Positions 453-60,786 of a stretch of DNA of 64,000 bases are shown piece after piece. Position 1 is the first letter of the stretch. Each line of letters opens with the position of its first letter. A program made the translations under genes and the position numbers. Location of the stretch: positions 1 to 64,000 of the forward strand of contig JBMFIG010000004.1 in assembly GCA_049976425.1 (NCBI GenBank), in the 5' to 3' direction. This stretch comes from Thermoproteus sp. GTDB lineage: Archaea; Thermoproteota; Thermoprotei; Thermoproteales; Thermoproteaceae. The notes below the pieces were generated by a model. The model made no database searches, was not told the origin of the DNA, and saw only the letters and a program-made list of their open reading frames with translations.

Positions 453-819
453 GGCGCCGGCCGAGAGGCTGAGGGACATGTACCTCTACGACCACGAGGT
501 CTTCGCGGCAGTCGCCTTGATAGCCGAAGTGAGGGACGTGGACCACGCCATAGCTCTCGCCAACGGGCGTAGGTACGGCCTCGACGCGGCGATATTCGGA
601 AACGACATCGTGAAGATCAGGAAGGCCATAAGGCTCCTCGAGGTGGGCAATATCTACGTCAACGACTACCCGAGACACGGCATCGGCTACTTCCCGTTCG
701 GCGGCAGGAAGGACTCCGGGATCGGGAGGGAGGGGATAGGGTACCCCATAGAGTACGTCACGGCCTACAAGACCGTGGTGTACAACTATAGGGGGAGAGG
801 CGTCTGGGAATATCTGTAG
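451..819 (+). pseudogene. gapN: C-terminal fragment of non-phosphorylating GAP dehydrogenase (GAPN)-like ALDH
   Basis: [57 protein letters not shown] match the GAPN C-terminus; about 380 N-terminal residues including the catalytic Cys are missing. Confidence 0.8.
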
Positions 820-11853: not shown

Positions 11854-13533
11854 TCAAGGTTTCCCGCCGCCCATCTTGCCCGTGCCGTTTATAGAGCCGG
11901 AGCCGCCCATCCCCCCGTTCCCCATCCCGCCGGACCCAATCGACATACCGCCGCCGGCAGAGCTGCCTCCGGAGACGCCGCCAGATACAGAGACGCCTCC
12001 GCCTGAGGTCGTTACAGTGACGGGGATGCCGACGATGGAGCTTATGGACGACGTAGATATGCCGAGACCGTGTTCTAGATCGGCTATGTGGATCAGTATC
12101 AGCTTGAGCCTATAGATATCGTTTAGAGCGGCAAGCCCGCCGTAACTGTCTACGTATACCTTCAGCTGCCGCAGTTGTTCCATGGGCACGTATACGCCTC
12201 TGTGCGTTTTCTCGACGTAGTACTGCCAATCCAGCAACTTAGCTATCTCGCAGAGCGTCGCGTACTTCAGCCGCATAGCCGACACGTTCGCGAAGCCCTC
12301 TCCGGCATATTTGGCCAACAGCTCGGTCACGTTGAAGTCGATACAGAGGGCGGCTATCTGGGGGCTAGTCGGCTGGCTCACCTCCAACGAGTTGTAGATG
12401 CTCTGCACCAAGCCGGCCGGGCCCCCGACTGACTCCAACGCCTTCAATATCCCTAGAGCCCTCTCGTGGTGCTCAACCGCCGCCTTGACCGCCTCGACGG
12501 CCGACGCGCTGGCGTTGACGCTCTCGAGGAGCTTCAACGTCTCGTTCAGCCTTTCTACCGACAGCTCGACGCGGATTAGGGCGTTCTGAACGCCGTACGT
12601 GCCGTTGAGGACGGCCAGCAGATCTCTGTCGGTTGCGTTGGAAATGGCGCGGAGGCCCCCCTCCACGCCTATATAGGCCAGCGCCGTTGCGGACTTGTTG
12701 AACAGCTCGGCCTCGCGGGCCAGGCGCGCGGACACCGTGGCGTTGACGCCGGCCAGCGCCCTCGCCAACGCGTTCAGCTTGCCCGCCAGATCCTCCAAGG
12801 CGGCCGACGCCGCGAAGTAGCCCCTATCGTTCGCGACTACGGAGCTCAGATTGGCCGCGGCCCTCGCCTTAACCCCGGCGAGCCCTCCGTTTGTCCATAT
12901 GTACCGGAGGAGGTCCGCCACCTCCTCGTGCCTCAGGCTGGCGTTCAAGACCTCCTCGACGGCCGTCTTGTTCGCGCCGACTTTCTGGAGTATCTCGGCC
13001 ACGGCCTTCAAGACAGCGGACGCGTTGGCGTTGGCCTCTACGGCTCTCCTATACCCCGAGTCGCGGGCGAGGGCTTGAGCCGCCTCGCGCAGGCCGCTTA
13101 CCTCCAGCGGGCGTAAATACCTCGTCAAGTTCGCCATGGCCTCCATCCTCGCCTCCTTCAGCCTCTGGAACACGGCCTTAGCCTGGGTTATGTTGAGGCC
13201 TAGCTTCTTCAGCTCGCCCACGCCCACAGCCGGAGCGAAGAACGCCTTTGTCCCGTTGGGCAACGTGGCGTTGAGGGAACAATACGGCACGGTCAGCTTG
13301 ACGCCGGACACCTCCACGGTGAAGTTGCCGGAGGCTTGCGCCTCGGCGATCAGCCGAGACGCGTTCTGGCCCGAGACGTAGGCCAGGTAGTTCACCAACG
13401 CGTACCACTTGACCTCCACGTCCGGAGGACACATCTGTTGCTGGGCCGAGGCGCCCAGGGCCAACGCCCCGAGCGCGGCCAGGCCTAGTATTATCCCTCC
13501 CACTATTATTCCTAGTGTTATTTTCCTTTCCAT
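11854..13533 (-). CDS. Secreted helical-repeat glycoprotein with Gly-rich tail
   Basis: Signal peptide, many NxS/T sequons, internal repeats, Gly/Ser/Met-rich C-terminus. Confidence 0.8.
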   Translation of the reverse strand: MERKITLGIIVGGIILGLAALGALALGASAQQQMCPPDVEVKWYALVNYLAYVSGQNASRLIAEAQASGNFTVEVSGVKLTVPYCSLNATLPNGTKAFFAPAVGVGELKKLGLNITQAKAVFQRLKEARMEAMANLTRYLRPLEVSGLREAAQALARDSGYRRAVEANANASAVLKAVAEILQKVGANKTAVEEVLNASLRHEEVADLLRYIWTNGGLAGVKARAAANLSSVVANDRGYFAASAALEDLAGKLNALARALAGVNATVSARLAREAELFNKSATALAYIGVEGGLRAISNATDRDLLAVLNGTYGVQNALIRVELSVERLNETLKLLESVNASASAVEAVKAAVEHHERALGILKALESVGGPAGLVQSIYNSLEVSQPTSPQIAALCIDFNVTELLAKYAGEGFANVSAMRLKYATLCEIAKLLDWQYYVEKTHRGVYVPMEQLRQLKVYVDSYGGLAALNDIYRLKLILIHIADLEHGLGISTSSISSIVGIPVTVTTSGGGVSVSGGVSGGSSAGGGMSIGSGGMGNGGMGGSGSINGTGKMGGGKP

Positions 13534-33886: not shown

Positions 33887-35031
33887 CTATAAAAATACGG
33901 GAACTCCTCTGAACTCCTCCACAAAGGCCTTGATCGCCTTTTCGTCCACGGGCCTCTTCCTTGCGGCGTAGTCCTTGACGCGCCTCAAGATATAGTCGAC
34001 GAGCTCTGGGCTGGGCTCCAGCCCCATCTGCTTCAAGGCCCACTCGACGGAGTGCCTCCCCGAGTGCTTCCCCAGCACTATCCTCCTCCTGTTCCCCACG
34101 GCCTCGGGCATCATGGGCTCGTAGGTGAAGGGGTTGTTGAGGACGCCGTGGACGTGGATGCCGGACTCGTGGCTGAAGGCGTTGTCGCCCACGACTGCTT
34201 TGTTGGGCTGTAGCTGGATCCCGAAGAGCCTAGCCACCAGCCGCGACGTCTCGTAGAGCCGCTCCATCCTAAGGCCGACCTCGCGGCCCAGCAGAAAGCG
34301 GGCGGCGGCGGCCACCTCCTCCAGCGCCGCGTTGCCGCCCCTCTCGCCGAACCCGTTGACAGTGACTTGGGCCACCTCGGCGCCCGCCTCTATCGCGGCG
34401 ATGGTGTTGGCCACCGCCATGCCGAAGTCGTCGTGGCAGTGCACGTGCATGGGGACCGGCGGGAGCTCGGCCTTGAGGTGCTCCACCAGATACCTCATCC
34501 TGCTGGGCGTCATCACGCCGACGGTGTCGGGCACGTTTATCTCGTCGGCGCCTGCCTCTATCGCCGTTCTGAACGCCTCGACGAGGAAGCCCAAATCGCT
34601 CCTGGTGGCGTCCTCGGCGCTGAAGAGAACCCTAACCCCTCTGGACTTGGCGTACTCCACAGACTCAGCGATCCTCCGCAACACCTCGTCCCGCGTCATC
34701 CTCAGCTTGTACTTCATGTGTATATCGCTCGTCGCTATGAAGACGTGGACCATGTCCACATCGGCGTCGACGGCGGCGTCTATGTCGGCCTTGTTGGCCC
34801 GCGCCAGGCTGGCCACCTCTGAATACGCCGCGTCCCGCGCTATTCTCCTCACCGCCTCGGCCTCCTCGGGCGACACGGCCGCGAAGCCGGCCTCTATATA
34901 GTCCACCTTTAGTTCGTCCAACGCCATGCCTATCTGGACCTTCTCTTCGACGGTCAGAGAGATGCCGGGCATCTGTTCGCCGTCTCTGAGGGTGGTGTCG
35001 AAGAACCTCACCCGGTGAGCCCCGAATCCAT
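33887..35031 (-). CDS. leuA: 2-isopropylmalate synthase without C-terminal regulatory domain; predicted -1 frameshift near the start
   Basis: [22 protein letters not shown] and HESGIH motifs; ATG 35031 opens ATG GAT TCG GGG CTC ACC GGG TGA, enzyme in the -1 frame (in-frame GTG at 35011). Confidence 0.88.
35008..35031 (-). promoter_or_regulatory. Putative Leu-sensing frameshift cassette (TCG GGG CTC)
   Basis: ATG about 25 nt after TTTTATATA; G-GGG followed by a Leu codon. Confidence 0.75.
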
Positions 35032-48502: not shown

Positions 48503-48766
48503 TCATCGCCTCTCCCTCAACGCCACGGCCATCGCGGGCGCAGTCTGTAGCTTGCCTATCTCGAGGACCTCCGGCAGTTTGTCCAGCTTGGCCACCAGCC
48601 AGTTTATCTCGTCGGCCGGGCCCTCCACGTCCATAACTATGTGGTACGTCGAGTCCCTCGCCTCTATCTCCATGCGCCTCACGAACACCTTCGCCCTCCT
48701 CACTATGCTGACGACCCTCCCGACGTAGTCCATCGAGGAGGGTATCCTTATGCTAATGGCGCTCAT
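48503..48766 (-). CDS. ilvH: Acetolactate synthase small (ACT) subunit
   Basis: ACT-like fold, KLDKLPEV; lies between ilvB and ilvC. Confidence 0.75.
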   Translation of the reverse strand: MSAISIRIPSSMDYVGRVVSIVRRAKVFVRRMEIEARDSTYHIVMDVEGPADEINWLVAKLDKLPEVLEIGKLQTAPAMAVALRERR

Positions 48767-50527
48767 ACCTCAACGACACGTCCTCCATCCCCTCGGGCAG
48801 AATTGCTTGGGTTAGCCAATCGCCGGGCTTCACCCAAGGCAACACGATGTCCTTGTCCTCGTCTATGGTCACGTCTATCACTATAGGCTCGTTGTTCCTC
48901 ACAGCCCACGACACGGCCCTCTCCAGCTCCTCGTAGGTCGACGGCTTGACGCCCTCTATCCCGTAGGCCTCCGCTATCTTCAAGAAGTCGGGGTTCCTCG
49001 CGAACCTCACGGCGATCTGCCTATTGCCGTACATGTAGACCTGCCACTGCTTGACCAGCTGTAAGGACGCGTTGTCGAATATCACCTCGACAAAGGGCAG
49101 ATCGTACTCCCTCACCAGCGCGAGGTTGTTGAAGGTCATCTGGAACGACCCGTCGCCGTCTATACACACGACGGGCCTAGAGCGGTCGGCGAGCTTGGCG
49201 CCGAGAGCCGCAGGTATGCCGAAGCCCATCGTGCCCAGGCCGGCCGACGTTATGAAGGTCCCCGGCTCGTACACCTCCCACCAGATCTCCGACCACATCT
49301 GGTGTCCCCCCACGCCCGTCACGGTGACGGCGTTCGGCGGCGTGGCCCTCCTCACCGCCTTTAGCACCTTCCAGGGCGCGAAGTACTTGAACTTGCCGGC
49401 GGCCTTCTCCATGGCCTCTTCGTACCTCCTCCTGATCTCGTAAAGCCAGGCGAGGAACTTGGGGCTCCTCGCGGCGGCCGACGGCATTAGGTCCAGCATC
49501 TCCCTAAGAGCCTCCTTGGCGTCCGCTATTATGCCGACGGTGGGCTTCACGTTCTTCCCCACCTCGCTTCGGTCGATATCTATATGGATCAGCTTGACCT
49601 CGCCCGACCTAACCATCTCCTGGAGCTCCTTGAACCTCCCCCAAGTCCTGTCGCTGAACCTGGTCCCCACGGCCACCACCACGTCGGCGTTTGCCAAAGC
49701 CGCGTCCGCCTCGGCCCTCCCGTGCATCCCGGCCGGCCCCATATACAGCGGGTGGTTGTGGGGGATGGCGGCCTTCCCGGGCAAGGTCGACACGATGGGC
49801 GCATTGAGCCTCTCGGCGAGCTCCAGCACCTCCTTGGTGGCGCCCGACCACAACACTCCGCCTCCCGCCAGCACCACCGGCCTCTCCGCCTCCAAGATCA
49901 TCTTGACGGCCTTCGCCACGTCCTCCTCCCTGGGCTTGGGAGGTATGAACTTTGCCGCGTTTATCTGTATCTTGGCCTCGCCCCTATACTCCATCAGCTG
50001 GAGATCCCTCGGCAGATCCACCAAGGTCGGTCCGGGCCTCCCCAGCATCGAGATCTCGTAGGCGATCTTGACGGCGGCCGTGGCCTCCTCCGGCCTCTTC
50101 ACCTGGTACACCCACTTGGTTATAGGCGTCGCCACCCCCAATATGTCGGTCTCCTGGAACCCATCCCTCCCGAACACCCACGTGGCTACCTGCCCCGTTA
50201 TCGCCGCGACGGGCACCGAGTCCATGTAGGCGTCGGTCAAGCCAGTCACCAAGTTCGTGGCGCCGGGGCCGCTCGTAGCGGCCACCACGGCGGGCCTCCC
50301 CGCTACTCTGGCGTAGCCCTCGGCTGCGTGCACGGCGCCCTGCTCGTGGCGGAACATGACCACCTCTATGTCGTCTACGAAATACGCCGCGTCGAATAGG
50401 GCCATTATAGAGCCGCCCGTTATTCCGAGGATGTGCCTTACCTTGAGCTCCCTAAGCGTGTCGATTATTCTGTCGACGACTCTATTGGGGCGATCCCCTC
50501 GAGCCCCGAAGCGACCCCCGAATCCAT
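48753..50527 (-). CDS. ilvB: Acetolactate synthase large subunit; predicted -1 frameshift near the start
   Basis: [19 protein letters not shown] and GDGSF motifs; ATG 50527 opens a 20-codon ORF and the enzyme is in the -1 frame. Confidence 0.93.
50465..50527 (-). promoter_or_regulatory. Putative Val/Leu/Ile-sensing frameshift cassette (TCG GGG GTC; TCG GGG CTC; GAG GGG ATC)
   Basis: Three tandem G-GGG sites, each followed by a branched-chain amino acid codon. Confidence 0.8.
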
Positions 50528-51168: not shown

Positions 51169-51189
51169 ATGCGTTCGGGGAAAACGTAA
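51169..51189 (+). promoter_or_regulatory. Putative Lys-sensing frameshift cassette (TCG GGG AAA)
   Basis: ATG 26 nt after TTAAATAT; no in-frame ATG/GTG/TTG before the catalytic DSTLREGEQ. Confidence 0.8.
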
Positions 51190-52562
51190 AGATCCTCGAC
51201 TCGACGCTGAGGGAAGGCGAGCAGACCCCCGGCGTCGTCTTCTCCGAAGATTGGAGGATTAGGATCGCCAAGGCCCTCTCAGATGCCGGCGTCCACATGA
51301 TAGAGGTGGGCGATCCCAACGTGGCGCCCGACATAAGGTCGGCCATAGCGAAGATAGTGGCCATGAAGAGAGACGGCGAGATAGCCGGCGAGATCGTGGC
51401 CCACAGCAGATCGGTCAAGGCAGATATAGAGAACGCCGCGTCGCTCGAGCCCGACAGGGTGGCTATATTCTACGGCGTGAGCGACATACACTTGAAGCAC
51501 AAGCACAGGAAGTCGAGGGAGGAGGCCCTGTCCATAATTGCGGAGCACGTGGAGTTCGCGAGGAGCCACGGAGTGCGCGTGAGGTTCACTGCCGAGGACG
51601 CCACGCGGGCCGACCCCGACTACTTAATACAGGTGGTCAAGACGGCGAGGGATGCGGGAGCCGACAGGGTGAGCATCGCCGACACCGTGGGTATCTTGAC
51701 GCCCGAGAAGGCGCGGCGGCTGTTCGCCGAGGTCAAGGAGGCCGTGCCCGACGTGGGGCTCGACATACACGCCCACAACGACCTCGGCATGGCGGTGGCC
51801 AACTCCTTGGCGGCCGTCGAGGGGGGAGCCGACGTGGTCCACACGACGGTGAACGGCCTCGGCGAGAGGGCAGGGATAACGCCGCTCCAGACGTTCGCCG
51901 CGGCGTACTACTACCACAGGGGGGTGAAGCTGATAGATCTGACTAAGTTGCCCTACCTGGCCTCCTTGGTGGAGGCGGCCAGCGGCATAGCGCAGATGCC
52001 CACGTTCCCCGTGACCGGCGACAACGCCTTCACGCACAAGGCCGGGGTCCACCAGGCCGGCGTGTTGGCGAGCCCCGAGACCTACGAGCCGTTCCCTCCC
52101 GAGGTGGTGGGCCGCACGAGGGACTTCTCGTTGGACAAATACAGCGGGAGGAAGGCCGTCGCCCACAGGCTCGAGAGGCTCGGCGTCAAGGTCGACGAGG
52201 AGGTCTTGGGGAAGCTCGTGGAGGAGCTGAAGTCCACCAACGCGCGGAGGCTACGCGACGAGGATCTCCTCGAGATGTTGGAGAAGATAACCGGGATGAG
52301 GTACAGGGCGCAGGTCAACAAGCACATAGAGGCGTACGTCTGGGTGAAAGTCGACGAGAACGTCTACACGACGTCGGTGGCCAGGAGGATCATGGCGATA
52401 AGGGGCGTGACCGGCGTCGGCGAGGTGACGGGCGAGTTCGACATAGTGGCCAAGATATCGGCCGAGAACGCCGAGGAGCTGAACAGGATAATCGAGGAGG
52501 TGAGGGCCGTCAAGGGCGTCAAGTCGACGCTCACCAATATAGTCCTGAAACAGCTTTCATAA
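51169..52562 (+). CDS. Homocitrate synthase with C-terminal RAM/AsnC domain; predicted -1 frameshift near the start
   Basis: ILDSTLREGEQ (upstream of the ORF-track start), HAHNDLG, GERAG and HKAGVH motifs; ATG CGT TCG GGG AAA ACG TAA, enzyme in the -1 frame. Confidence 0.88.
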
Positions 52563-55438: not shown

Positions 55439-56661
55439 TTATTTCTTATCCATAGATCTTTTACTTAACGCCGTCAAGCTATGTAGCGACCACATCTCTA
55501 TGAACCCCCTCGCCTCCTCGTCGGTCGGGTACCACCCCTTGGAGTAGTCCGCCAGCTCCTTGCTGTAGGTGCCGTATTTGGAGTCCCTGGCGACTATCTG
55601 CACAGATCCCTTGTAGAGCTTCGCCTTCACCCACCCGTCGACCCACCTCTCCATCTCGCCGGCGGCCGCCTCGATGGCGAGCCTGAGCGGCTCCACCCAC
55701 AGCCCCTGGTAGACTAGGTCTGCCCAGTAGGGGTCGAGGACGTTGTGCTTGAACCTGAGCTCCCTCGGCGTGAGGACCAGCTTCTCGAGATCCCTATGCG
55801 ACTCGAAGAGTATGACCGCGGCGGGGGCCTCGTACACCTCTCTGCTCTTGAAGCCCACCAGCCTGCTCTCGATGTGGTCTATCCTCCCGACCCCCGCGGC
55901 TCCGCCTATCTGGTTAAGCGCCTTCACGAGGGAGAGCATGTCCATGCGCTCGCCGTTGATAGCCCTAGGCAGGCCCCCCTCGAACTCTATCTCCACGTAG
56001 GTTGGCTGGTCGGGCGCCTTCTCGGGCTGGACGGTCCACTTGAAGGCGTCCTCGGGCGGCTCGAGCCTCTGGTCGTCGACGGGCCCTCCCTCTATGGAGC
56101 GGCTCCAGAGGTTCTCGTCTATGCTGTACTTCTTGTGGGCCTCCGGCACAGGTATGCCGTGCTTCTTGGCGTACTCGATCTCCTGCTCCCTGCCCATGCC
56201 CCAAACCCTCGCGGGGGCCAACACCTCCAAGTCGGGCGCAAGGGCCTTTGCGGTGACGTCGAAACGGACCTGGTCGTTTCCCTTGCTGGTGCTCCCGTGG
56301 GCTATGGCGTCAGCCCCCTCGCGCCTCGCCACCTCGACGGTCTTCGCGACAATCAGCGGCCTGGCCAACGCAGTGCCTAGGGGGTACTTCCCCTCGTACA
56401 TGGCGTTCATGAGGACGGCCCTGCCGACGTACTCCTCGGCGAATTCCCTCTTGGCGTCTATGGTGTAGTGCTTGACCGCGCCGGCCTTATAGGCCCTCGC
56501 CTCGACCTCCGAGAAGTCCTCCTCCTGCCCTACGTCGACCGTGACCGTGATAACCTCGGCGTTGTACTTCTCCGAGAGCCACTTGATGGCGACCGTGGTG
56601 TCGAGCCCGCCCGAGTAGGCGAGCGCGATCCTGCTTATTCTCGCCCCGACTTACTCGCCAT
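55439..56661 (-). CDS. argG: Argininosuccinate synthase; predicted -1 frameshift near the start
   Basis: LAYSGGLDT (upstream of the ORF-track start), HGSTSKGNDQVRF, YSIDENLW and KSREVYE motifs; ATG 56661 with GGAGG SD is out of frame. Confidence 0.92.
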
Positions 56662-56669
56662 AGTCCTCC
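56635..56669 (-). promoter_or_regulatory. SD plus putative Arg-sensing frameshift cassette (ATG GCG AGT AAG TCG GGG CGA GAA TAA)
   Basis: GGAGG at 56665-56669; G-GGG followed by Arg codon CGA; no canonical in-frame start before AYSGG. Confidence 0.8.
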
Positions 56670-56836
56670 ACATCCCCCTTGAACTCCTCTAGGGTTACCG
56701 AGCCGCCCTTGAGCCTCACAATATACCGGGTCCCGCACGTGGGGCAACTGGCTATCTCGCCGTCCATCACGTCCTCCGGCAACTCGAACTCCGTGCCGCA
56801 GACCTTGCACTGGACCACCAGCTTTTGGGTTGCCAT
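56651..56836 (-). CDS. lysW: LysW amino-group carrier protein
   Basis: CKVCG…CPTCG Zn ribbon, acidic, C-terminal EDYGE. Confidence 0.93.
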   Translation of the reverse strand: MATQKLVVQCKVCGTEFELPEDVMDGEIASCPTCGTRYIVRLKGGSVTLEEFKGDVEDYGE

Positions 56837-57946: not shown

Positions 57947-58726
57947 CTACCCGACCACGTGGGTCCCCGCGCCGTTGAGGGCAACATCTATGGGGGCCTC
58001 CACCAAGCCGCTGGATATTATCACCTCGATCCCGGCCTTGGCGGCCTCTGCGGCCATCAACAGCTTCCTCTTCATGCCGCCTTTGACCTCCTCGTTCTGG
58101 ACAAGCCGCTCCGCCTCTTCGGCCGTGAGGCGCGGCACCACCCTCCCGCCGATATAGAGGCCCTCGACGTCGCTGAGGAGCACCAGCTTCTCGGCGCCTG
58201 TCCTTTTGGCCACGTCGAACGCCAGCTGGTCGCCGTCTATGTTCAGGAGCTCGCCCCTCTCCGACACGGCGATGGGGGCCAGCACCCTCAACGGCGGCGG
58301 CGCCAGCTTGGAGGCGTCTATCTCTGTTATACGGCCCACGTAGCCCCCGTCCACGACCCTCTGCCTCCCCCTCTCGTCGACCACCAGCACCTTCTCCTTG
58401 CGCTTGGCCCTCACCACGCCTAGATCGGCCCCGGTTAGGCCCAGCGCCGGCACGCCCATGCCGTGTAGCGAGGCGACTATGGACTTGTTTATCCAGCTCA
58501 TGGCCATGACGAAGGCCTTTAAGGTCTCCCAGTCCGTGTAGCGGCTTACGAGCCCGCCGGGGTGCGTGAGGAATTTCGGCTCTATCCCCATCCTCTTCAT
58601 CAACTCGTTGACAAGACACCCCCCGCCGTGGACCACGACCGCCTTGTCGGCGTATTTGGGCAGGTTGCGGATCGCCATCGAGGCGTCCTTGCAGATAACG
58701 GATCCTCCTATCTTGATCACGATCAT
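57947..58726 (-). CDS. lysZ: [LysW]-aminoadipate/glutamate kinase
   Basis: KIGGS, VHGGG, SRYTD, NIDGD and GGMKRK motifs. Confidence 0.93.
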
Positions 58727-59778
58727 ATGGGGTGGGGAGGTATGTACCTAAGCCCTTGATCCTCGGGGAACCCCGCCGCTATGTTGAACGCCTGCACGGC
58801 CTGCCCGGCGGCCCCGCGCACCAAGTTGTCTATGGCCGAGAACGCGACGACCCTCCTCATCCTGGGATCTATCTCGAAGCCCACGTCGACTATGTTGGTG
58901 CCCAGTACATATTTTATATTTGGATAGCGCGCTAGGCCCAGCTTGTCCTTCACGATCCTCACGAACTTCGAGTCGCCGTACATGGCCCTATACGCCTTCC
59001 ACAACGTCGGCTCGTCCACGTCGCGTTCGGTGAACACGTGCGCCGTGGAGAGTATGCCCCTCACGGCGTCGACGGCGTGCGGCGTGTAGGCCACCCTCAC
59101 CTCCCTCCCCGCAAGCCGCGAGAGCTCCTGCTCCACCTCCGCCGCGTGTCTGTGGTGAACCGGCTCGTAGGGCCTTATGACGTAGGTGCGGTGGCTGTGC
59201 ATGTCGAGGACCGACCCCTCGGCCCCGGCGCCTGAGGAGCCCATCTTCACGTCGATTACCGGCGGGAGGGGGCCTAGAAGCCCGTATTTGGCCAGAGGCG
59301 CGAGCGCCATTATGGATGCAGTGGCGGTGCACCCGGGAGACGCTATGAGCTTGGCGCCGGGTAGCTCGTCCTTGTGCAGTTCGGGGAGGCCGTAAACCGC
59401 CTTCTTCAAGAGATCGGGGTAGGGATGCGGCTGCGGCCACTTATACCACTCCACGTAGGCGTTGGGATCCTTCAGCCTGAAGTCGGCCGACAGGTCGACC
59501 ACCATGAGGCCGTGCTCGTACAGCTGGGGGACCCACTTGACCGACTCGCCGTGGGGAAGCGCCAGGAAGACCACGTCGGCCTTCAACGCGGCGTCGATGC
59601 TGGGCTCCACGAACTTGAGGTTTGTGAATCCCCTGAGGTTTGGGTGGATCCTGTAGACGTACTCCCCCTTGAACTTCCTAGAGGTGGCGCAGACTATCTC
59701 GACCCCTCCGTGCTGTAGCAAGATGCGCAACAGCTCTCCGCCGGTGAATCCGGAGGCCCCCACTACGCAAGCCTTCAT
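58723..59778 (-). CDS. lysY: [LysW]-aminoadipate/glutamate phosphate reductase
   Basis: [24 protein letters not shown] and [11 protein letters not shown] motifs. Confidence 0.94.
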
Positions 59779-60460
59779 GCCTCCTCCAGCCCGACCTCGG
59801 CCAGGAGCCTCGCCCTAGCCTCGTCCAGCTCCGGCACGGGGTCTACGTCTATCACGCGCTCCCCGTCGTCGTAGACGCCGAGCGTGATCTCAGCGTACTT
59901 GAGGCCCAGCGACCTCAACACCTCGCCCGCTATCCCGTCGATCCCGGGCACGGCGAACACCTTCCTGACCTCTCTGGGCTTGGGCATGGCGATGCTACCC
60001 TTGGCCAGGGGGTTCCTCATGTAGTTGCGGTGCTCCACGACGCTTTTGGCCCCCTCTACGCTAGTCACCGACACGTCTAGGCCCAGGCGCCAGACGGTCG
60101 CGAGGAGCCACGGCGGCTTGAAGTCCACCTTCTCCACGGCCTCCTCGTCGGAGAACACGAAGAAGTGGGGGCCGTATTTGGGCAACCAGTACAGCCTATT
60201 GAGCGCGTTGTATATGGCGTATGAGGGGTTTATCGATCTGCGGAACAGGGAGGCGTACACAGCGCCGAGGTACTGGTTCCTCGTCCTTATGAAGACGGTG
60301 AAGTCCCCGCCCTCGACATGTCCCTGGGATATATCGAGGATATCGGCATGCGCGCCGCGGGCCGATAGGAGCTTGGCGAGAAGCCTCTCGCCTAGCTCGG
60401 GCTTCTCGGATAGTATGAGTATCCTCGCCCCGTTGGCCCCGCTTTCCCCGCAAGGTCCAT
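59775..60460 (-). CDS. Divergent LysX/ArgX (RimK ATP-grasp)-like protein; predicted -1 frameshift near the start
   Basis: Frame stays open upstream of the ORF-track GTG (ILILSEKPELGERLL…FIRT…SINP); KSVVEHR…NPL and IDVDPVPE resemble LysX; ATG 60460 is out of frame. Confidence 0.7.
60392..60460 (-). promoter_or_regulatory. Putative Lys/Pro/Arg-sensing frameshift cassette (GCG GGG AAA GCG GGG CCA ACG GGG CGA)
   Basis: ATG about 27 nt after TTTATATA; three tandem NCG GGG sites. Confidence 0.8.
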
Positions 60461-60519
60461 ATAGGCTGGGCTGGGGACTATATATAAACTTAACGGGCTA
60501 TTACGCAAAAACCGATTTC

Positions 60520-60786
60520 TCAGTTGCCTATCGCCTTTCTCTGTAGCCACTTGGCGTACATTATCATGAATACGTCTGCGTTGTGTTTTCCTACGGCTTT
60601 GGATAGGGCTTGGTAAATCTCGTCGGGTTTTTCTAGGGCTATCTCCTCGAAGGTCTTCCCCAAGACTCTAGCCAGCCTCACGTCCAGCACAGCCCTATAG
60701 CTGTTATCCAGAGAGCTGTAGAACTCCAACAACCTCCCTCTAGACATCCTCACATCACCAGCCCAAGTCCTCACAACCGCCGTCAT
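60520..60786 (-). CDS. Small hypothetical protein
   Basis: 88-aa ORF, lower GC than its neighbours. Confidence 0.65.
   Translation of the reverse strand: MTAVVRTWAGDVRMSRGRLLEFYSSLDNSYRAVLDVRLARVLGKTFEEIALEKPDEIYQALSKAVGKHNADVFMIMYAKWLQRKAIGN

Follow-up and report, generated by a model that had tools for sequence, protein, structure and literature searches.

How is a gene translated when its conserved protein begins ahead of every start codon in its own frame? The question is raised by a gene for a LysX-like protein in the window, by which we mean the whole stretch of DNA that was analysed, the first 64,000 nucleotides of contig JBMFIG010000004.1 of a Thermoproteus species (assembly GCA_049976425.1). 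The gene stands on the minus strand at the head of a lysX-like-lysY-lysZ operon, and the ATG at promoter distance opens a different, short frame in which GGGG tracts recur every nine nucleotides, each followed by a codon for lysine, proline or arginine. The first-pass annotation, made from the letters alone, had read this array as a triple sensor of the three amino acids. Our findings refine that reading: to judge from the sequence, the 22-codon frame would be not a separate attenuator leader but the start of the LysX-like gene itself, read out by a -1 frameshift. They also support the view that the locus is one member, and the sole three-input Lys/Pro/Arg member, of a conserved family of frameshift-type amino-acid sensors.

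The 5' region was compared across 27 loci, nine of nine from the genus of the window and 18 of 18 from a second genus; we call these genera Thermoproteus and Pyrobaculum after the source names of the protein matches. A degenerate second copy (L044) and two loci of a third genus were left out of the 27. The parts of the element are as follows.

60481..60488 (-): TATA box TTTATATA of the operon promoter, read in the sequence, 20 nucleotides upstream of the ATG at 60460
60458..60460 (-): ATG of frame 0, probably the initiation codon of an mRNA without a leader; in 27/27 loci it is offset by one base from the LysX-like open reading frame (ORF)
60392..60460 (-): frame-0 ORF of 22 codons plus TAG, the expected product if no shift occurs
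60443..60449 (-): unit 1, G_GGG_AAA, putative slip site and lysine codon, kept in 25/27 loci
60434..60440 (-): unit 2, G_GGG_CCA, putative slip site and proline codon, kept in 26/27 loci and the sole unit of locus L021
60425..60431 (-): unit 3, G_GGG_CGA, putative slip site and arginine codon, kept in 26/27 loci
59778..60449 (-): ORF of the -1 frame, predicted to encode a shortened LysX/ArgX-like ATP-grasp protein, with a conserved core of 216 residues from 60425 (RILILSEKPE...)

The short frame runs from the ATG at 60460-60458 to the TAG at 60394-60392 and reads ATG GAC CTT GCG GGG AAA GCG GGG CCA ACG GGG CGA GGA TAC ... TAG, with the product MDLAGKAGPTGRGYSYYPRSPS*; its periodic part, GGGGAAAGCGGGGCCAACGGGG, occupies 60449-60428. 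The -1 frame, without a stop between 60497 and 59778, carries the LysX-like protein and overlaps the short ORF by 69 nucleotides. The 9-nucleotide periodic array ahead of the LysX-like frame, and the run of the -1 frame into that protein, are thus as first described, on the minus strand. Of the span 60392-60488 first assigned to the sensor, the lower end stands, being the TAG, and the upper end does not, 60488 being the 5' edge of the TATA box and the ATG lying at 60460. GGGGN5GGGGN5GGGG has a single match in the window, where 0.06 would be expected, and at least one match in 5 of 100 shuffles; it has 13 matches in the genome, among which the array at 60449-60428 alone follows a promoter. The three sensor codons are as uncommon as had been surmised. 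In a set of about 1760 genes from across the genome, which comes from our own ORF scoring and not from annotation, AAA makes up 15% of the lysine codons, CCA 4% of the proline codons and CGA 2% of the arginine codons, each being the codon least used for its amino acid. Their usage is similar in the lysX-like and lysY genes of Thermoproteus and Pyrobaculum.

The case for recoding rests on the beginning of the protein. Between the promoter and the conserved core there is no in-frame ATG, GTG or TTG in any of the 27 loci. Downstream of the promoter, the earliest canonical start in frame with the protein lies at various places between core residues 5 and 56; in the window it is the GTG at 60260, 55 residues inside the conserved protein. 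Both of the fallback starts that the first-pass annotation had named fail on comparison. The codon at the ATA near 60422 is ATA, GTA, GTC or GCC in the relatives, and a start at GTG 60260 would remove 55 residues of the conserved N-terminal domain, besides being replaced elsewhere by starts that shift over that same range of core residues. Because a conserved N-terminal strand is left without an in-frame start, the LysX-like gene very probably needs recoding from the ATG at 60460. The sequence directly after the last unit also evolves as coding sequence in the -1 frame: at codon positions 1, 2 and 3 of that frame, the variable columns number 18, 10 and 28 of 32 in Thermoproteus and 23, 11 and 32 of 32 in Pyrobaculum.

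The signals upstream are equally constant. The base just before the out-of-frame ATG is a pyrimidine in 27/27 loci, as expected if transcription begins at the A, and a TATA-like octamer found by regular expression starts 24-29 nucleotides before the ATG in 26/27, the remaining locus (L010) showing TTTATATA in its printed sequence. The length of the frame-0 ORF is 22 codons throughout the nine Thermoproteus loci; among the 18 from Pyrobaculum it ranges over 13-26 codons, with 17 of these at 24-26. The LysX-like protein itself is present in 38 of 41 related genomes and in 29 of the 29 genomes of the family.

Within this constant layout the lysine and proline units have changed places between the genera. 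The lysine unit comes first in Thermoproteus (AAA-CCA-CGA) and second in Pyrobaculum (CCA-AAA-CGA); there are two units in L015 and one in L021, which suggests that one unit is enough and speaks against both a G-quadruplex and a two-step shift. No change is seen in the alignment at the GGGG tracts or at the codons AAA, CCA and CGA, the length of the tract is the same in 27 independent genomes, and the two bases before each GGGG vary freely (GC, GT, TC, AC, CT, CA, GA, AT, CC). From the ATG to the core, 6 of 36 columns vary among eight Thermoproteus loci. Third positions vary in 1 of 12 cases in this stretch against 28 of 32 downstream (Fisher p 1.9e-6, a value that is indicative only, the sequences being kin). 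So few variable columns in the array imply that the constraint acts on nucleotides and not on a peptide in either frame.

The loci outside the 27 are of some interest in their own right. L044, a second copy in genome G019, is degenerate and has stops, and still shows ATG AAC GAG GGG CCA GAG... behind a TATA box. The two loci of the third genus have a homologue with an ordinary in-frame ATG (MRVAIVYD...). In L030 and L045, from another genus in a sister family, the LysX-like gene likewise has an in-frame ATG (MTGNAGA.../MTGNSGA...), which overlaps (ATGA) the stop of a 4-codon ORF, ATG GAA CGA CAA TGA, that stands at promoter distance and contains the rare arginine codon CGA. This 4-codon ORF may be a coupling-type relative or a forerunner of the array.

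We consider it likely that the operon is controlled by a regulated -1 frameshift, a slip of the P-site tRNA at a hungry codon that turns the operon on when lysyl-, prolyl- or arginyl-tRNA is scarce. The mRNA of lysX-like-lysY-lysZ would be leaderless and translated in frame 0 from its 5'-terminal AUG at 60460. The ribosome would meet G_GGG_AAA, G_GGG_CCA and G_GGG_CGA in turn, each time with tRNA-Gly on GGG in the P site and a rare lysine, proline or arginine codon in the A site. With charged tRNA plentiful the codon would be read, frame 0 kept and translation ended at the TAG at 60392 after 22 codons, with no enzyme made; with the tRNA scarce the A site would stand empty, and peptidyl-tRNA-Gly could move back one base onto the overlapping GGG and carry the ribosome through the LysX-like protein in the -1 frame. 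LysY and LysZ would then be made by translational coupling through their ATGA start/stop overlaps. Arranged in series, the three units would form an OR gate whose inputs are the end products made with LysY and LysZ, namely lysine, arginine by way of ornithine and, probably, proline by way of ornithine too. Which unit is used would alter a few residues at the N-terminus of the protein and leave the conserved core whole. Re-pairing in the P site is possible in the new frame at every unit, since a G precedes each GGG, and in E. coli the slip of a P-site tRNA next to an empty A site is an established pathway (PMC8915115). From this arrangement we infer the start of transcription, the slip itself and its dependence on tRNA charging.

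Elements of the same kind stand before other genes of the organism. We scanned the genome for an ATG that has a TATA-like element 19-34 nucleotides ahead of it and opens a frame-0 ORF no longer than 45 codons, with a GGG preceded by G among the first 14 codons of that ORF and a -1 frame open over 120 codons or more. A TATA element and an ATG were found together at 923 candidates, 382 of them with a short frame-0 ORF, and 16 passed all the criteria; the reversed genome gave one match, and seven other combinations of homopolymer and shift direction gave between 0 and 4 (three for G with a +1 shift). Each of the 15 matches other than the lysX-like locus has in its -1 frame either an enzyme of amino-acid biosynthesis or an aminoacyl-tRNA synthetase, and the triplet that follows the GGGG is a codon for the corresponding amino acid. 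The products, with the codon or codons that follow the GGGG, are listed below.

Threonine synthase: ACA
Homocitrate synthase, 51177-52559 (+): AAA; leader 51169-51189 (+), ATG CGT TCG GGG AAA ACG TAA; TIGR02146, 514 bits
LysX: AAA
Acetolactate synthase large subunit, 48756-50519 (-): GTC, CTC, ATC; leaderless leader 50527-50465 (-)
2-isopropylmalate synthase, 33890-35023 (-): CTC; leader 35031-35008 (-), ATG GAT TCG GGG CTC ACC GGG TGA
Citramalate synthase: ATC
TrpB-like protein: TGG
Anthranilate synthase I (TrpE): TGG
Tryptophan-tRNA ligase (TrpRS): TGG
Cysteine-tRNA ligase (CysRS): TGT
Isoleucine-tRNA ligase (IleRS): ATT
Carbamoyl-phosphate synthase small subunit (CarA): CGA
Prephenate dehydratase: TTC
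3-dehydroquinate dehydratase (AroD) fused to chorismate mutase: TAC
Transketolase N-terminal half: TAC, TGG

Eleven of the 15 products score above the NCBIfam cut-offs; the transketolase half, the AroD/chorismate mutase fusion, TrpE and prephenate dehydratase score below them with strong E-values. Three of these sister elements lie inside the window, with their ATGs at 51169 (+), 50527 (-) and 35031 (-). Most carry a single GGGG. The acetolactate synthase leader, which reads ATG GAT TCG GGG GTC GCT TCG GGG CTC GAG GGG ATC, has three units for valine, leucine and isoleucine. All four arginine elements use CGA and all three lysine elements use AAA. The A-site codon thus matches the pathway at the 15 other matches and at argG, described below, and in the case of proline the match is a deduction. 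The proposed direction of control fits both kinds of target, biosynthetic and synthetase genes. The homocitrate synthase of the window bears, in addition, a C-terminal domain resembling the LysM regulator (NF040947, E 3e-19).

The acetolactate synthase gene, ilvB, gives the clearest view of what is being read. It is present in 28 of the 29 genomes of the family, the one that lacks it being 61% complete, and its leader was examined in all 28 loci. The valine unit, found in 27 loci, is GTC in 7, GTT in 2 and GTA in 18; the leucine unit is CTC or CTT in 28, and the isoleucine unit is ATC or ATT in the 14 that have it. Such changes are silent in frame 0 but alter the amino acids of the -1 frame, so the triplets are selected, and presumably read, as frame-0 codons for particular amino acids.

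A few elements lie outside the rules of the scan. The argG gene (55442-56647 (-); NF001770, 542 bits) has no in-frame start and occupies the -1 frame of a short ORF with G_GGG_CGA at 56661-56635 (-), ATG GCG AGT AAG TCG GGG CGA GAA TAA, which overlaps the end of a lysW/argW-like gene. The alignment with the argG family begins at residue 4 past the slip site, and this arginine unit is internal and not leaderless. A cysteine unit, ATG CCG GGG TGC at 12184 (-) of contig C10, precedes an ORF of the cysteine synthase family (TIGR01136, 76 bits, below the cut-off) and appears only under a relaxed promoter rule. Relaxed promoter rules returned 25 and 13 rows and gained this cysteine (TGC) element and argG. 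The remaining rows were judged to be chance matches, among them a proteasome subunit that has its own ATG and an RNase Z gene with the site at codon 19. Without the TATA requirement there were 449 matches, mostly noise.

Two further observations concern genes of arginine and proline synthesis. On contig C34 a 6-codon ORF with G_GGG_CGA (543-563 (+)) lies 55 nucleotides upstream of the ATG of carB, and its -1 frame, 29 codons long, passes over the carB start and ends about 20 nucleotides beyond it; this may be a variant that delivers ribosomes to carB instead of fusing frames. On contig C5, ahead of a proC-like gene, 77163-77190 (+) holds a leaderless ATG GAG ATC AGT CCC CCA AAC C followed by the GTG of the proC-like ORF in the +1 frame. 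Here CCC_C and the rare CCA after it may sense proline by a +1 shift, or translation may simply begin at the GTG.

Beyond the genus of the window, three of 16 matches to ATGNNNTCGGGG in one Pyrobaculum genome have a promoter and a long -1 ORF; their sensors are TGG, TGG and CTC, and their products resemble, by N-terminal sequence only, a TrpB-like protein, a Trp-pathway enzyme and isopropylmalate synthase (L087). In one genome of the sister family none of the four matches to ATGNNNTCGGGG has a promoter. The ilvB starts of that family are ordinary in five of five genomes, and its LysX-like gene has in-frame starts. Among the families searched, the device therefore appears to be confined to one.

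The proline codon of the array carries a prediction of its own, namely that proline synthesis depends on this operon. The first-pass annotation had expected proline to come from this route, for example through ornithine. The Thermoproteus tenax genome paper proposes synthesis from ornithine, and the gene content agrees: neither proA nor proB scores above its cut-off in this genome, which is 99.4% complete, the best proB match being lysZ itself, and two genes of the ornithine cyclodeaminase family score above theirs, with a proC-like gene below. A route shared by lysine and arginine is known from Sulfolobus, and the match of LysZ to a model for kinases of both substrates, above its cut-off, fits such a route.

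The remainder of the operon comprises the following genes.

58723..59778 (-): lysY/argC, N-acetyl-gamma-glutamyl-phosphate reductase type; TIGR01850, 408 bits, cut-off 234
57947..58726 (-): lysZ, [LysW]-aminoadipate/[LysW]-glutamate kinase; NF010662, 271 bits, cut-off 194; overlaps lysY

The stop of the LysX-like ORF (TGA, 59775-59777) overlaps the ATG of lysY as ATGA, an overlap printed in 24/27 loci and absent from L015, L020 and L022. The LysX-like protein has no match in Pfam or NCBIfam, and gene callers give it 166-248 residues and name it hypothetical in every case. A profile built from 24 relatives finds the Sulfolobus tokodaii ArgX (3vpb_A) with an E-value of 3e-8, its first conserved residue aligning with residue 2 of that chain. 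The AlphaFold model (predicted local distance difference test score 95.9) finds the same structure with Foldseek (3vpb_A, E 2.9e-13, template modelling (TM) score 0.86), together with 5k2m and 3vpd. Against ArgX, the bifunctional LysX/ArgX and LysX, its TM scores are 0.80-0.86 on the query at 16-18% identity. Matches to pre-ATP-grasp domains are weak and occur in few relatives (Rimk_N in 5/24, LysX_preATP_grasp in 2/24), the protein is about 60 residues shorter than LysX, and four ordinary RimK-type genes stand elsewhere in the genome. On its predicted structure the protein of the -1 frame is a shortened, divergent LysX/ArgX-like ATP-grasp protein, for which "LysX-like" is a fair name; it may be an enzyme acting on LysW or a non-catalytic partner.

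Some neighbouring features complete the picture. A LysW/ArgW-like carrier of 61 residues ending in EDYGE lies at 56651-56836 (-) and has an ordinary leaderless ATG behind a TATA box; its NF041070 score of 64 bits is below the cut-off of 75. Upstream of the TATA box of the operon there is the stop of an 88-codon ORF (60786-60520), then a T-rich stretch. This 88-residue ORF (60520-60786 (-)) has no family assignment, with a weak match to NitrOD5 (E 0.004), and a frame related to it is visible upstream in several Thermoproteus loci and not in Pyrobaculum.

What else might produce such a locus? The closest alternative accepts the frameshift and denies that it is regulated: ribosomes would slip at a fixed rate at the G runs, as a translational correction, and the codons that follow would have no sensing role. 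The need for recoding has been shown, G runs are slip-prone and three serial sites would raise the total yield, all of which speaks for such a constitutive slip. It leaves unexplained why a cognate codon follows the GGGG at the 15 other matches, why the ilvB sensors have changed only synonymously in 28 loci and why AAA, CCA and CGA are kept though their order has been swapped, and we think it unlikely. A classical leader peptide would dispense with the shift altogether, stalling at the lysine, proline and arginine codons altering RNA folding or termination and the LysX-like ORF being translated by non-canonical initiation. A short ORF with cognate codons before biosynthetic genes does look like a bacterial attenuator, and lysine genes of Thermus are reportedly under leader-peptide control. 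Yet here the short ORF overlaps the structural gene rather than preceding it, no conserved hairpins were found, and Rfam gives no match at E-values up to 1 within 60200-60700. There is also no conserved near-cognate start in the -1 frame, where the relatives have the four codons given above, and the strict -1 relation with G_GGG before every sensor (16 matches, against three for G with a +1 shift) would go unaccounted for; this makes a leader peptide distinctly unlikely.

Slippage might instead befall the nucleic acid, RNA polymerase or the replication machinery adding or dropping a G in GGGG so that part of the mRNAs or cells have the gene in frame. Homopolymer runs can cause transcriptional realignment, according to a review of recoding (PMC5009743), but these runs are just 4 G long, their length is identical in 27 genomes and the cognate codons would have no role, so that we rate this very unlikely. 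A last alternative, in our view very improbable, is that the look of codons is an accident and the array serves as a protein- or DNA-binding site or folds into a G-rich RNA structure, for example a G-quadruplex. Three G4 tracts with 5-nucleotide spacers and conservation at the level of nucleotides might suggest it, and against it there are one tract in L021, two in L015 and a single GGGG in most sister elements; the motif, moreover, is unique in the genome at a promoter, which speaks against a shared operator, and the missing start codon would be left unexplained. Two decoding schemes were also tried and rejected. Quadruplet decoding of GGGG, or two +1 shifts, is ruled out by the single unit of L021 and of most sister elements. 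Internal initiation at GTG is possible only with TGG or TGT sensors, which give GGG GTG in the -1 frame, and not with AAA, CCA, CGA or most of the others.

Several points weigh against the regulated -1 frameshift itself. No sequencing run with RNA was found for the locus; three DNA metagenome runs are listed, two of which cover a part of the window. G_GGG_AAA does not have the canonical form X_XXY_YYZ of a slippery heptamer, and G_GGG_AAA, G_GGG_CCA and G_GGG_CGA permit re-pairing of the P-site tRNA only. There is no conserved downstream stimulatory structure, RNAalifold finding compensatory changes at 1 of 26 pairs in Thermoproteus and 0 of 10 in Pyrobaculum. The tRNA-Gly(CCC) and single isoacceptors for AAA, CCA and CGA were not confirmed, ARAGORN being unreliable for intron-rich tRNA genes: it reports 15 tRNAs when introns are disallowed and 40 when they are allowed, and the latter set, which has implausible introns of hundreds of bases, was dropped. 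Transketolase matches tyrosine and tryptophan only indirectly, through its presumed part as a supplier of aromatic precursors. Common codons (GTC, CTC and ATC) are among the sensors at other genes of the organism, so rarity is not the general principle, though it may tune sensitivity. The proline link depends on matches to the ornithine cyclodeaminase/mu-crystallin family, which also holds other enzymes, and a proC-like gene exists; besides the synthesis of proline from ornithine by the cyclodeaminase, the Thermoproteus tenax genome paper proposes as an alternative its synthesis from glutamate through putA and proC. As for a stimulator acting through the ribosome, the 16S 3' end of two relatives reads ...GGAUCACCUCC, with whose CCUC the GGGG could pair only through a G-U pair. 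Such weak pairing could occur, and no dedicated stimulator was seen. In this assembly a regular-expression search for the 16S 3' end was empty and there was no match to small-subunit rRNA.

The regulated -1 frameshift has relatives in several known systems; the nearest in logic would be the autoregulation of prfB, and the nearest in purpose leader-peptide attenuation and T-boxes. In bacteria prfB, which encodes release factor 2 (RF2), is subject to an autoregulatory +1 frameshift, a case treated in the review PMC5009743. There, as is proposed here, a P-site tRNA re-pairs on an overlapping identical codon while the A site awaits a scarce factor, translation in frame 0 stops early, the complete protein comes from the shifted frame and the scarce factor is what is regulated. 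The shift at the lysX-like locus would instead be -1, with a sense codon awaiting its aminoacyl-tRNA in place of a stop codon awaiting RF2; it would take place at codons 4-12 of a leaderless mRNA, with up to three serial sensors, in a whole set of operons and without a clear Shine-Dalgarno-like stimulator. With bacterial attenuation (trp, his, thr, ilv) the elements share cognate codons in a short 5' frame that report tRNA charging, and several kinds of codon where a pathway has several products, as in ilv with valine, leucine and isoleucine. They differ in having no terminator or antiterminator hairpins that we could find, in a short frame that overlaps a structural gene without a conserved start of its own, and in having one codon per amino acid rather than runs; the output would be a change of reading frame and not of transcription. 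The T-box riboswitches of Gram-positive bacteria are structured leader RNAs that bind uncharged tRNA directly and read it with a specifier codon. In both systems biosynthesis and synthetase genes would each be switched on by lack of their own charged tRNA through such a codon, but here no structure was found and the ribosome itself would be the reader.

Among frameshifts proper, the locus has the conserved overlap of frame 0 with a startless -1 ORF that marks a canonical -1 site (27/27), and lacks the heptamer and the downstream structure. The fucA1 gene of Sulfolobus solfataricus reportedly carries a canonical A_AAA_AAT heptamer in mid-gene; it differs from the present case in being a single gene with no amino-acid codon logic and with its shift away from the 5' end. 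It resembles this case as an archaeal cellular gene split between frames 0 and -1 and expressed by ribosomal slippage (cited in PMC8915115). The hungry-codon frameshifting of E. coli (Gallant and co-workers; Caliskan 2017) has the same vacant A site, P-site slip and decoding in the new frame, and is treated in two articles (PMC8915115, PMC5009743); it is known there as a laboratory or error phenomenon, whereas here it would be an evolved and conserved switch. According to a 2016 recoding review, no natural hungry-codon shift is known that gives a functional trans-frame protein under starvation (PMC5009743). A full-text search, which lacked most subscription journals, returned no description of such elements in Thermoproteus or Pyrobaculum, and a prior report is possible.

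Taken over the whole family, we think it fairly probable that the Thermoproteaceae (Thermoproteus, Pyrobaculum and the third genus) keep at least 18 operons under a hungry-codon -1 frameshift at G_GGG_codon sites, placed at the 5' ends of mRNAs most of which would be leaderless, and that these operons cover the biosynthesis of Lys, Arg, Pro, Val, Leu, Ile, Thr, Trp, Tyr, Phe and Cys together with TrpRS, CysRS and IleRS. The ribosome would serve as the amino-acid sensor, in an archaeal counterpart of attenuation and T-boxes, with the array of the lysX-like operon as a three-input OR gate and proline predicted to come from ornithine. Such a finding would correct the annotation of a class of genes that are now called with arbitrary starts or as hypothetical, and would offer a tiny programmable amino-acid-responsive switch for the engineering of thermophiles. 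It would also give a direct read-out of the end products that a pathway serves, implying in this case that LysY and LysZ feed proline as well. To our knowledge it is largely unclear how archaea match amino-acid synthesis and tRNA charging to demand, the attenuators and T-boxes being bacterial. The elements described here suggest a minimal solution for leaderless mRNAs, made of about 10 nucleotides with one slippery glycine codon and one specifier codon, and if our reading is correct they would be the first evolved and natural use of hungry-codon frameshifting.

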